Source of the DNA: Escherichia coli O127:H6 str. E2348/69
GTDB taxonomy: Bacteria; Pseudomonadota; Gammaproteobacteria; Enterobacterales; Enterobacteriaceae
Assembly (NCBI RefSeq): GCF_000026545.1
Contig: NC_011601.1
Direction: 5' to 3' (one strand)
Length of the DNA stretch: 64,000 nt
Shown here: positions 58,801 through 64,000 of the stretch, piece by piece
Layout: each line of letters opens with the position of its first letter
Position numbering within the stretch: the first letter of the stretch is position 1
Made by a program: the position numbers

Positions 58801-61800
58801 CGCATACCAGGACAGTGAAGTGGTCAGTTCGTACTGTGTGTCATCCGCAGAGTTAACATGACTGTCCACCGTCAGGAAGTCGACTTTTCTTGCCTCCATT
58901 CCGGCGACGGTCAACGTGTCAAAATCGCCGTTGATGGCGTTATCAGCATCAATCAGAGTAAATGCATAAGGATCGTGGGTCAGCGGGTTGTTGATGTTAC
59001 CAATACCCGTAATGTTGAGCGTCCCGCCCAGCGAGGCGTCATGAGCGGTAATGATCGGACTGCTGGCATCCGTCCCAAGATTGATACTCAGGACACTGCC
59101 ATCCTGCTGATCCAGTATACCAGTAGCAAGTGTTGCACCGGCAGCCAGTGAAGTGGTACCGCCATCAAACGTGGTGATATTGGTCAGCGTATACTGCCCC
59201 GCAGCATTCAGATTCAACGTAGCGTAGTTTGCCACATCACCGATCCCCAGCGCGCCAGTATGATCAGCATTGAGCGTACCCGCTTCAATACCCGTGCCGC
59301 CGCTGTAGGTGTTGGCGTGAGCAACCGTAATGGTGTTGGCATCTTCTTTCACCACCTTACCCACATAACTGCCCACTATTGTGTCACCGTCATATGTATT
59401 GTAGTCGCTAATCACATTACCACTGTTCAGCGTCCAGTCCTCTGCACCGCGCAGCGTCAGGGTTCCGCCATTGATAATATTACCCGCCCCCAGCGCTGAT
59501 GCATCCGCCACAGCCAGATCCGCATCCATATCCTTATTCGCACCAATAATCCAGGTACCATTAAAGCTGTCATTGTCACCGCTGACGGTAAGATCCCACA
59601 CGGTACTGACTTCCCCGCTACCACTGAGGCTGTTGCTCAGGTCTCCCCCAGCTGGCGAAAAAATACTCAGCAGCCCGTCAACCACGATATCCCCGCGGCC
59701 AAGGTTGGTCGTCTCGCTAATTACCTGGGCGCCTTGTTCTATGTTGATGGTTGCGCTCAGACCACTGAGATCGCTGGTCGATCTAATATTGAGTTCACTG
59801 TATAAATTCAGCAAACCACTGCCGGTAACGATCCCCTCAAAAAAGGAGACCCATCTATATCGAGAACCATGTCCGATCGTCAACTCACCACCGTCCAGAT
59901 CAAGCATACTGCCCACACCCACAGATACAGAATCAAAGCTCTGACTCTCACCGTTCAGAATGTAAGCATTGCCACTTTCCAGTTCCAGCACATTATCCAC
60001 TTGAGCTTTCAGGCTCGCCCCCTTATCGAGGGGGCTGCCGCTGTAGGCAGAGATCGCCATGCCGCTACTGTAACTATGTTGTCTGTCAGAAGCGTCTACC
60101 GTTTCCCCGGTAACCATTGCATTCGTCACCTCAGATGTGGATTCCGCCTGCGCACTGAGCGGGCTTAACGCCAGGAGCACCATCGCGGCCACCGACCGCA
60201 CCTGGGTTTTCATCCGACTGTCGCCGCGCGAGAGTTCGGAAGCAACGACGTACATATTACGCGCGGCATTCCAGACAATGTTGTAAGTTCTGTTCATGAA
60301 TTAGTCCTTTAAGATTAAGAGCGCGTGTTCCTCGCTCAGGCTGTGATGCAATTGATGAATAATGCGGATGACCTGCTGACCGGTGATCAGCCGGGAGCAC
60401 TCATACTGCCGCTCAGTACCTTTGTGCCTGGGACATTGCAGAAAATCCTGGTGATCAAAATCGATGCGCATATCGTCCCAGCAACCATGGCAGCCATAAG
60501 AATTGAATACGCGCCACGGTGTATAGAACTCACTTAGAGGATTGGTAAACCCACTAATCAACACCAGCGGGATGTGACAACTCCACGCTAACCAACTCAA
60601 GCCGCTGCTCAGGCCAACAAAAAAGGCCGCATGGCGAAGCAAATCCACCCGTTGCTGTAGCGGCAGCGCGCCAGTGAAATCCTCTGCGCCGTTCGGGATG
60701 TGATTCCAGACAAAACCATAACCATGGTGCGCCTCTTTATCGATGCACAGCACTCGGTAGCCCAGCGTTTTCAGTTCAGAAATTACCTGCGACCAGCCAT
60801 AGCCGTTGTTCCAGTATTTCGCCTGGCAGGAAGACTGAACGGCGATACAAACGTAGGGTTCGTCAATGCTGCGCACAGCATCAAGTTTCAGTAACGGCGG
60901 CTCTTCATGCGGCAAAATTCCCAGGATATAAGCAGCGATACGACTAAAGCCAACCTGGCGGAAATCCACCGGTTGATGAGTATCATTGCCTTTGAAAAAC
61001 AGTCCGATGCGGTAGCTGGCGTAGGGGCTGTGGGTTTGAATGCTTTCACGAGTGGAAAAAGTGATTTGCGGATACTGGTCGCGTAGCAGTTCAATGATTT
61101 CCTCTGCCATCACACATTCCAACTGACACTGATGCTTCTGGCGGAAACGTTCAGCATAGGGAAACCAACCAAGGAGCTCCTCCAAAGTGCCGATGGGAAA
61201 GTGGATAATGACAGTTTTATCACGCAGATCCTGAACTACGTCCAGCACAGGTGTCGTTTCACCGTCTTTAAATACCTGGATGCGAAAGTTGATGAAGTAC
61301 TTTTTATTACTCATCACACAGCCTTGATCAGTCTCACAGGTCAGTAATATATTGCCGGAGTCGTCATCAATTAAATTTACCTGCCACTGACCAGGGCCAA
61401 GTTTAACGCGGGCTCCGTCATTAAAATCAAAACGAATACCATGCAACGCTTTTTGGGTAGGAATAAAAGGGCGTGTAGAGAACAACAGAGGTGTTTGTCC
61501 GTCTATTATGTTTGGCAGTGTGTCATTATTACTCACTGTAAAGCTCCTTTTTATCGAATTAGTAAGGCATCATGTTAGGCGATAAACTAATATCACTGAC
61601 GATCTCCAAAAAAATAACCAATCACTATGAAAATTATTTTCACAAGCTCTACTAAATTTAGCGCTGTAATTAACCCAATACTTTCACAAACAATGAAAAT
61701 ATCGAAAACCAGTTATGGAGGGCTCCCCTCCTTTGCGGCATGCTGTAAGTGTTTAAATCACTGCAACTTATTCATCGTGTTTATACATCCATCATGGAAT

Positions 61801-64000
61801 ATAAATAGCGCTAAACGTATTCATAAAAATAATATTCAAGCAATTAATATTGTTTTTATGGATACCTTCTTCGCCTACAACCGCTCCACGACTTCAATTT
61901 TTTACTGAATTAAAAATAATATTTTTAGTATATTCGCAGAATATCTGCTCAAAGTAATATTATTTTTATAGATTAATAATTCAAATTCTATCTATTAAAC
62001 AATTTAATGATTTCGCGAATGTTTTGCGAAATAATTAATAAAAATATTTTTACAATATCTCACTTGGTATTTTAGGGTAATTTAAAGCCAATACGCCAAT
62101 TAAATGTAAATAAAAAGCATAAAATAATGAGCATATGATTTTTTGATATAAAAATTAAAAAAAACACACTATTACAAACATTTTATATTCTGTATTGTTA
62201 CATTGTGACTGAGCACACAATATCTCCACGCCTTATTATTGCTGTCTCTCCTGATAGTTTGTAGCCATAGTGGATGCGGCCTATCAAAGAAACTCAGTTA
62301 ATATTATTAAGGAAGCCAACTCATCTTTAGCCACAAAGCGCATGACAAGCAGGAAGAGTATATCTATAGATATCTCTTCAGAAAAAAATAATGGTTATGA
62401 GGCTAATGAACAAAACAAAATGGCCTGATTCGCTACATTTATCGTCTAAAGAGTGAAAACTACTAAACAAATCAATAGAATATAACCAATAACATAAAAT
62501 GCATGGCATATGAGGGAACAATTTTGCTATTTTCATGCTGCATGTTTCGATAGCAACACATTTCGTAGATTTACATTAACTCCTTTTTTTCTCCACGATT
62601 GGCTCGTACCTTGCCGCTACAGTGAAGCAAGTCAAGCCTACAACGATACGCAGAAACACGAGGTCCTCTTTTAATGGCGAATTTCTTTATTGATCGCCCC
62701 ATTTTTGCCTGGGTGCTGGCAATCCTGTTGTGTCTGACAGGTACCCTGGCGATTTTTTCATTGCCCGTTGAACAATACCCCGATCTCGCGCCACCGAATG
62801 TGCGAGTGACCGCTAACTATCCCGGCGCATCGGCCCAGACGCTGGAAAATACCGTGACCCAGGTTATCGAGCAAAATATGACCGGCCTCGATAATCTGAT
62901 GTATATGTCATCTCAGAGCAGCGGCACCGGTCAGGCATCTGTCACGTTAAGTTTTAAAGCAGGCACCGATCCGGACGAAGCCGTGCAGCAAGTACAAAAC
63001 CAGCTACAATCAGCCATGCGAAAGTTACCGCAGGCGGTGCAAAATCAGGGCGTGACGGTGCGTAAAACCGGCGATACCAACATTCTGACCATTGCCTTCG
63101 TCTCTACCGATGGTTCGATGGATAAACAGGATATTGCCGATTATGTTGCCAGTAATATTCAGGACCCGTTAAGCCGCGTGAATGGCGTCGGGGATATCGA
63201 TGCCTATGGTTCGCAATATTCCATGCGTATCTGGCTGGACCCGGCGAAACTCAACAGTTTCCAGATGACGGCTAAAGATGTCACCGATGCCATTGAATCA
63301 CAGAACGCGCAGATTGCGGTTGGGCAACTTGGTGGTACGCCTTCCGTCGATAAGCAGGCGCTCAACGCCACCATTAACGCCCAGTCACTGCTGCAAACAC
63401 CAGAACAGTTCCGCGATATCACCTTGCGGGTGAATCAGGACGGCTCAGAGGTAAGGCTGGGCGATGTCGCCACCGTCGAAATGGGGGCGGAGAAATACGA
63501 TTATCTTAGCCGCTTCAATGGTAAGCCAGCCTCCGGGCTGGGGGTTAAACTGGCCTCCGGCGCGAACGAAATGGCGACAGCGGAGCTGGTGCTCAATCGT
63601 CTCGACGAGCTGGCGCAGTATTTTCCACACGGACTGGAATACAAGGTGGCGTATGAAACCACCTCGTTTGTTAAAGCCTCCATTGAAGACGTGGTGAAAA
63701 CGCTTCTGGAAGCTATCGCCCTGGTTTTCCTCGTTATGTATCTGTTCCTGCAAAACTTCCGCGCCACGCTGATACCCACTATCGCCGTGCCGGTGGTGTT
63801 GATGGGAACCTTCTCCGTGCTTTACGCCTTCGGTTACAGTGTCAACACCTTAACCATGTTCGCGATGGTGCTGGCGATCGGTCTGCTGGTGGATGATGCC
63901 ATCGTGGTGGTGGAAAACGTCGAACGTATTATGAGTGAGGAAGGACTCACTCCTCGCGAAGCCACACGTAAATCGATGGGGCAGATCCAGGGGGCACTGG

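Follow-up and report, generated by a model that had tools for sequence, protein, structure and literature searches.

Ler is a paralogue of H-NS and acts by antagonising it. The Ler regulon of the enteropathogenic Escherichia coli (EPEC) strain E2348/69 was surveyed by microarray by Bingle et al. (2014; PMC3891560), who compared ler+ with ler- cells, found that E2348C_2705, labelled a "predicted glycosyl transferase", was activated 3-fold in mid-log and 5-fold in late-log phase, and predicted that every Ler-activated gene is repressed by H-NS. Repression by H-NS is also stated, with references, for other autotransporter genes of E. coli in the relevant passage of PMC3966885. The present analysis concerns the DNA in front of the gene that carries this tag, at positions 61537-62673 of a 64,000-nucleotide stretch of E. 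coli O127:H6 str. E2348/69 (hereafter the window, which matches the E2348/69 chromosome at 100% identity), where the adhesin heptosyltransferase gene egtA and the divergent gene acrD face away from one another. This spacer is probably an island-borne, AT-rich control region of the H-NS/Ler type, fused to the core promoter of acrD, in which the H-NS step is one that we infer.

The RefSeq annotation gives the order narQ (+), ehaJ (-), egtA (-) and acrD (+), and 61537-62673 is the divergent spacer between the last two. The preliminary description had placed this DNA upstream of the adhesin genes, and its limits proved to be exact, with the GTG of egtA at 61536 (minus strand) and the ATG of acrD at 62674. 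The features on which the argument depends are the following.

57011..62568: EhaJ island of 5,558 bp (5.56 kb), present in place of 67 bp in the narQ-acrD spacer of K-12, as delimited by comparison with K-12 DH10B.
57124..60297, minus strand: ehaJ, autotransporter adhesin of 1057 aa (RefSeq), with the Pfam families ESPR, PATR, Pertactin, AC_1 and Autotransporter.
60301..61536, minus strand: egtA, adhesin O-heptosyltransferase of 411 aa with a GTG start (E2348C_2705 / CAS10253.1), with the Pfam families TibC_1st and Glyco_transf_9.
61544..61549, minus strand: ribosome-binding site AAGGAG of egtA, 7 nt before the GTG, invariant in 13 strains.
61537..62568: island-borne, AT-rich, non-coding regulatory region with a guanine-plus-cytosine (GC) content of 30.3%, proposed target of H-NS/Ler and putative host of the egtA-ehaJ promoter.
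62569..62673, plus strand: core acrD promoter region, identical to K-12.

The evidence for an island comes from gene content as well as from the junctions. Of 5,426 complete genomes of E. coli, 19 carry the AT-rich 1,032 bp (61537-62568), and egtA, at more than 95% identity, occurs in the identical set of 19, while the last 105 bp (62569-62673) are present in 5,424 of the 5,426. K-12 has a spacer of 163 bp between narQ and acrD at the same site instead, which upholds the xenogeneic origin that had been suggested for this DNA. The right junction lies at 62568|62569, the core match beginning at 62569, and the left junction (57011) falls, relative to K-12, within the final codons of narQ. The two egtA and ehaJ reading frames are separated by just 3 nt.

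The narQ end of the island presents two observations of its own. The NarQ protein of the island carriers has 572 aa and ends in ...ESQLIWHPCSK, whereas that of K-12 has 566 aa and ends in ...ESQLM, and a 15-nt inverted repeat (57003-57017 / 57032-57046) lies across the new narQ stop, between the convergent narQ and ehaJ, where it resembles a shared terminator.

At its other end the island meets a normal acrD promoter, whose presence in the right-hand part of the spacer had been anticipated and is supported by the core DNA of the last 105 bp and by the BaeR box within it, which matches 17 of the 18 positions of the published E. coli BaeR-binding motif, TTTTTCTCCATDATTGGC, in the form in which PMC3915751 quotes it.

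62586..62603, plus strand: BaeR box TTTTTCTCCACGATTGGC, within the core DNA and 17 bp away from the junction with the island.
62674..64000, plus strand: 5' part of acrD (annotation).

The box is invariant in 13 strains. The island was thus inserted just 17 bp upstream of it, and the core promoter of acrD is unchanged. Within the island DNA, the best sigma-70-like match of the whole region (GTGAAA-17-TAGAAT, 62453-62481, plus strand) faces acrD at 193 nt before its ATG, and could add island-derived transcription into this gene.

The base composition of the spacer sets it apart from its surroundings, since 61537-62673 has 31.6% GC (30.3% in the island part), against 53.7% in the window, and is the lowest-GC stretch of 1.1 kb in these 64 kb, with a central core of 400 bp (61837-62236) at 21-25% GC. 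The conspicuous A/T-richness first noticed is therefore real. The island genes have a normal composition, at 48.7% GC in egtA and 52.7% in ehaJ, which means that the foreign-looking composition belongs to the control region and not to the island as a whole; the xenogeneic signature claimed for the locus holds for its regulatory DNA only. Runs of A or T of 5 nt or more are about twice as common as the composition predicts (16 against 7.1 expected, P~0.001), and those of 7 nt or more are also in excess (4 against 0.8, P~0.008). The longest, at 8 nt, equals the maximum elsewhere in the window, so that the "long" runs of the preliminary description were overstated for this strain. One run, A8 at 62157-62164, is longer by 1 nt in E2348/69 only, since each of the 12 other aligned strains has A7 there.

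The link to Ler depends on the identity of E2348C_2705. The exact EgtA sequence is CAS10253.1 / UniRef B7UGL8, the "Predicted glycosyl transferase" of E2348/69, and a gene count that starts at cysP (E2348C_2610) and passes the Mu-like prophage and then the eut genes of the window places tag 2705 within about 3 genes of the locus, where egtA is the sole glycosyltransferase. Given this protein look-up and the gene counting, E2348C_2705 is taken to be egtA.

Silencing of 61537-62568 by H-NS is plausible in view of the AT-richness and of the activation of egtA by Ler. In the mechanism proposed here, a region of 30% GC, falling to 21-25% in the middle, would be a natural substrate for H-NS filaments, which would keep egtA-ehaJ low, and the relief of H-NS by Ler in E2348/69 would tie the expression of egtA to the LEE (locus of enterocyte effacement) virulence programme. 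The Ler dependence in this scheme comes from the literature (PMC3891560), and the H-NS step would follow from the two properties just named.

Several results weigh against this explanation. Neither ehaJ, whose expected tag is E2348C_2704, nor acrD appears in the Ler tables (PMC3891560), and the absence of ehaJ may reflect either incomplete co-transcription or an insensitive array. The activation of egtA by Ler is itself modest (3-5-fold). A literature search for H-NS or Ler occupancy at the locus, and for H-NS chromatin immunoprecipitation in E2348/69, returned nothing, and the region has no site for the 10-bp H-NS nucleation motif TCGATAAATT at one mismatch or fewer; at two mismatches or fewer, there are 7 sites against 3.4 expected (P=0.06). 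A check for curvature found no helical phasing of A-tracts in the region. In addition, EhaJ is reportedly detectable in vitro in a wild-type EPEC strain (Easton et al. 2011), in which case the silencing would be incomplete.

E. coli is usually regarded as poor in repeat-based contingency loci. The AT-rich region of the EhaJ island contains one homopolymer that is short in the window and long in other lineages that carry the island.

61608..61614, minus strand: run of seven T as read along the egtA sense strand, or A7 on the plus strand, 71 nt upstream of the GTG, a short and stable allele.

The tract was surveyed at 27 loci, i.e., the region aligned from 13 island-carrying genomes and 14 more loci at which the corresponding site was read. 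In the 13-genome alignment its context is GGTTA-T(n)-G-AGATC, and it always lies about 70 nt ahead of the GTG, between flanks that do not vary. Every member of the E2348/69 lineage has T7GG, despite being 50-100 single-nucleotide polymorphisms (SNPs) apart in the surrounding 14 kb, whereas the tracts of the other lineages measure 10, 13, 16, 16, 16-18, 19, 21, 22, 23, 24, 25, 27, 28, 30, 30, 35 and 36 nt. Three near-clonal sets differ in tract length, one with 16, 24 and 30 nt among sequences that show neither SNPs nor any other indel over 14,019 nt, a second with 21, 22 and 36 nt at 0-2 SNPs in 14 kb, and a third with 23 and 27 nt at 2 SNPs in 14 kb. The alignment otherwise contains one 4-nt indel and a few 1-nt indels, and the tract is the sole site that stands out.

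In these comparisons, no other site of the 14 kb changes as fast as the length of the tract does, which fits replication slippage. For a slippage length of about 9 nt or more, the T7 of the window falls below and the 10-36 nt of the other lineages above, and the A7/T7 of E2348/69 is, as far as the alignment tells, a contracted and stable allele that is effectively locked. The slipped-strand switching imagined for this region thus narrows to a single hypervariable tract of 10-36 nt, found in other lineages, and the length variation sought among isolates exists, even between isolates that are 0-2 SNPs apart, but is missing from the lineage of the window, where T7 is constant.

Long tracts were seen in short-read metagenome contigs assembled with MEGAHIT, in NCTC records and in polished long-read assemblies, and their existence is robust because assemblies of several technologies contain them. 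Exact lengths are prone to error once a homopolymer exceeds about 15 nt, whichever sequencing technology is used, and part of the differences could be assembly artefacts, which also has to be counted against the overall explanation. No paper describing the tract was found in a literature search of limited coverage, and it is apparently an undescribed and unusually long repeat for E. coli.

Two observations on the alleles may be added. In 2022H047 (L012), which has the most divergent island allele, the tract site reads T8 followed by G8, a second homopolymer, and egtA has an internal stop. The 4-nt TTAA indel (~62034-62037) splits the E2348/69 lineage from the remaining strains.

The state of the adhesin gene bears on what this variation may mean. 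A widespread lineage with an intact egtA shares an 8-bp deletion (GACGCTTC) near codon ~65 of ehaJ, which leads to a stop at residue 67 (loci L008, L009, L015, L019, L020 and L023-L028), and other members of the E2348/69 lineage (L030-L032) have an ehaJ stop at residue 558, so that the adhesin is often a pseudogene while the heptosyltransferase is conserved. The tract ranges from 10 to 35 nt in the lineage with the 8-bp deletion and from 16 to 36 nt where ehaJ is intact, with full overlap. Equal variation where ehaJ is dead points to mutational instability and not to a proven switch, and such variation needs no selection. By default these comparisons are read as a sign of a mutational hot spot, and any effect of the tract on regulation is unproven.

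A regulatory role for the tract would depend on where transcription of egtA begins. Promoter scans returned many weak candidates and none that is decisive, and sites close to the consensus are fewer than expected (3 against 6.5 in shuffled sequences). Two candidates illustrate the choices on the egtA strand.

61572..61602, minus strand: weak sigma-70-like candidate TCGTCA-19-TAACAT, with the -10 at 61577-61572, a position weight matrix (PWM) score of 5.6, and conservation in all alleles.
61798..61826, minus strand: TTATGA-17-TATATT, with the -10 at 61803-61798, ranked first in PWM scans among sigma-70-like candidates less than 300 nt from egtA.

The first lies 35 nt upstream of the GTG and begins 5 nt downstream of the tract, which would put the T-tract, if this promoter is real, at the position of an UP element (from about -42 upstream). 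The second lies about 261 nt upstream of the GTG and, if real, would enclose the tract within a 5' untranslated region (UTR) of about 255 nt. A classical switch by the length of the -35/-10 spacer was rejected on geometry, as most tract alleles are longer than a 17-nt spacer.

With the first of these promoters, the tract would be an expression rheostat, or contingency repeat, for egtA-ehaJ, whose length would alter the contacts of the alpha subunit of RNA polymerase or the rotational alignment of upstream sites for H-NS, Ler or an activator, much as the T-tract of Helicobacter pylori sabA does, with E2348/69 holding a locked T7 allele. This is a doubtful proposal, though not a negligible one. 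It draws on the differences in length between isolates 0-2 SNPs apart, on the constant position and invariant flanks of the tract, and on the conserved, promoter-like site that begins so close to it; such a length is exceptional in a window where no A/T run exceeds 8 nt, and sabA offers a precedent, with T13-T18 adjoining the core promoter (PMC11162790; PMC2715451). The same candidate promoter scores poorly, the lengths span an equally wide range where the 8-bp deletion has inactivated ehaJ, those of intact and disrupted ehaJ overlap completely, and assembly error is possible in homopolymers of this size. The fuller claim, by which a poly(T) of 10-36 nt would tune or switch EhaJ and the heptosyltransferase in the manner of sabA, on top of the H-NS/Ler control, and would have been fixed in E2348/69 by contraction to T7, has to be considered a little more doubtful again.

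Less likely than either is a long transcribed leader, in which a promoter at least 260 nt upstream of egtA (for example TTATGA-17-TATATT) would leave the U-tract and the AU-rich structures to work at the level of the RNA, whether by pausing or attenuation, by Rho entry, by binding of Hfq or S1, or by occlusion of the ribosome-binding site. The top-scoring sigma-70-like sites on the egtA strand do all lie at least 262 nt upstream of the GTG, but chance hexamers of this kind abound in AT-rich DNA, as the deficit in the consensus scan illustrates. A weak hairpin terminates in the U-tract, but it is AU-rich and reaches just -4.5 to -4.8 kcal/mol, and the scan of the region for terminators found 0 terminator-like sites; for want of a stable GC-rich hairpin, an intrinsic terminator or attenuator was rejected. 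When folded, the hypothetical UTR pairs the Shine-Dalgarno (SD) sequence and the start region with upstream sequence, but neither the predicted energy of the fold nor start-codon accessibility changes over tract lengths of 0-36, and the accessibility of the SD sequence drifts only mildly with length and depends on an arbitrary 5' end. Rfam gave no match to such a leader, and the title of the preliminary description, which had used this word, finds no sign in the data that the region is transcribed as one.

A gene concealed in the region, be it a 93-aa protein, a small RNA or decayed regulator genes like those upstream of tibCA, is very improbable. The longest open reading frame (ORF) and two repeat features have to be considered here.

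61627..61908, plus strand: ORF of 93 aa, the longest of the region, judged non-coding.
61814..61868: imperfect inverted repeat with 23-nt arms, 87% complementary, and a 9-nt spacer; a spurious mir-137 match falls here.
61823..62051: cluster of 5-6 copies of the 14-mer ATAAAAATAATATT in both orientations, a motif chosen post hoc.

The ORF belongs to a stop-free frame of 96 codons, slightly long for 30% GC with a chance probability at the margin (P~0.05), and a product of 112 aa figures here in the annotation that one gene caller gave of another assembly (L023). Against this, a Pfam search gave no meaningful match for the ten longest segments between stops, and the ORF was rejected as a gene because all 4 of its 4 inter-lineage substitutions are non-synonymous and 2022H047 has a frameshift and several stops in it; the earlier statement that the region has no credible ORF is sustained on these grounds. 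Rfam, searched from 60500 to 63500 with permissive thresholds, yielded no more than two chance matches below threshold (mir-137 and sR14), and the RefSeq annotation places no feature in the region in 13 genomes. Beyond the 19 island carriers, no similar DNA was found in E. coli, in PLSDB plasmids, in other species or at the paralogue loci of E. coli, and the single match in a metagenome contig is the same E. coli island, with a tract of A28.

The repeats themselves are in modest excess, with 48 near-identical 12-mer pairs in the region against 15+/-9 in shuffled sequences. Both substitutions of 2022H047 in the inverted repeat break pairs, with no compensation. The ATAAAAATAATATT cluster and the inverted repeat could be protein-binding sites or plain low complexity.

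The least credible alternative is a classical E. coli phase switch, based either on competition with Dam methylation (agn43/pap) or on an invertible promoter (fimS/UpaE), which several AT-rich inverted repeats, a GATC adjoining the tract and the invertible switch of the autotransporter UpaE, known from a reference cited in PMC9289746, might recall, but to which the presence of just one GATC in 1,137 bp (lost in L020), the collinearity of 13 of 13 aligned strains with no inverted segment, the lack of an annotated recombinase gene in the island, and the low complexity of inverted repeats that are not kept by compensation are all opposed.

61601..61604: sole GATC (Dam) site of the region, 3 nt from the tract; GATT in L020.

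A Dam-methylation switch was rejected because it needs at least 2 GATC in regulator sites and the region has the one at 61601, an invertible switch of the fimS/UpaE type because the 13 strains are collinear, with no recombinase encoded in the island, and control by CRP on account of a sequence with only TGTGA half-sites.

Elsewhere in the window, a Mu-like prophage (window 1-~31550, extending beyond the window start) is inserted in eutC and ISEc13 (~34775-36148) splits eutA; the ethanolamine-utilisation operon of E2348/69 is hence disrupted twice.

The reading of the spacer as an H-NS/Ler-type control region would supply a sequence-level explanation for the presence of a "predicted glycosyl transferase" in the published Ler regulon of E2348/69, and would link the glycosylation of EhaJ to the LEE programme. 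Most of the finding is ordinary, i.e., another AT-rich, acquired control region of an adhesin beside a normal acrD promoter. A tract of up to 36 nt that varies between near-clonal isolates is unusual for an enterobacterium proficient in mismatch repair. Should expression depend on the tract, E. coli would have here a rare case of an adhesin rheostat driven by a repeat, and caution would also be called for, as the reference strain E2348/69 would be unrepresentative of the locus; if it has no such effect, the tract would still be useful as a hypermutable marker, and a trouble spot for assembly.

Among known systems, the EPEC promoters that are silenced by H-NS and countersilenced by Ler (the LEE operons, espC, nleA and others of the Ler regulon) share with this locus their AT-rich, acquired regulatory DNA, and egtA is found in the lists of Ler-activated genes of this very strain (PMC3891560). 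The differences are of degree and of extent, with 3-5-fold for egtA against 20-100-fold for the LEE genes, and with ehaJ absent from the lists. The genes of UpaC, UpaG/EhaG and other autotransporter adhesins, as treated in the relevant passage of PMC3966885, likewise lie behind a long AT-rich intergenic region; repression by H-NS is known there, whereas for egtA-ehaJ it is only inferred. On the acrD side, the comparison is with the BaeR-dependent promoter of K-12, to which the last 105 bp, including the BaeR box, are identical, but beyond -105 from the ATG the DNA is that of the island, and any K-12 element further upstream has been lost.

The two-gene layout of egtA-ehaJ, a TibC_1st/Glyco_transf_9 gene followed by an autotransporter gene, is that of aah-aidA (AIDA-I) and tibCA, although egtA has only about 65% DNA identity to these paralogues and the upstream DNA is non-homologous. 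The homologues of EgtA in other species are at most 66% identical, and the DNA upstream of those in Citrobacter, E. whittamii, Oxalobacter and others has no similarity to this region; the heptosyltransferase loci of Citrobacter portucalensis (L034) and C. gillenii (L035) have, at 32-34% GC, 0.8-1.1 kb of upstream DNA. Long control regions rich in A/T thus seem to recur in operons of this kind. No tract of 9 nt or more occurs at the homologue loci examined, and the long tract is specific to the EhaJ island.

For the tract itself, the closest counterpart is sabA of H. pylori, where a T-tract on the sense strand also precedes the gene of an adhesin, within AT-rich promoter DNA (PMC2715451; PMC11162790), and where its length also varies between strains and close isolates. 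For sabA there are a mapped start site, a tract that adjoins the core promoter and proof that expression depends on length, whereas the tract of egtA is known from sequence alone. The lengths differ as well, with 10-36 nt at egtA, and just T7 in E2348/69, against ~13-18 at sabA, and so does the host, given that E. coli has full mismatch repair. The poly(T) tract of the EhaJ island would accordingly be a promoter-proximal repeat of a known class, in a species that has few tracts of this kind.

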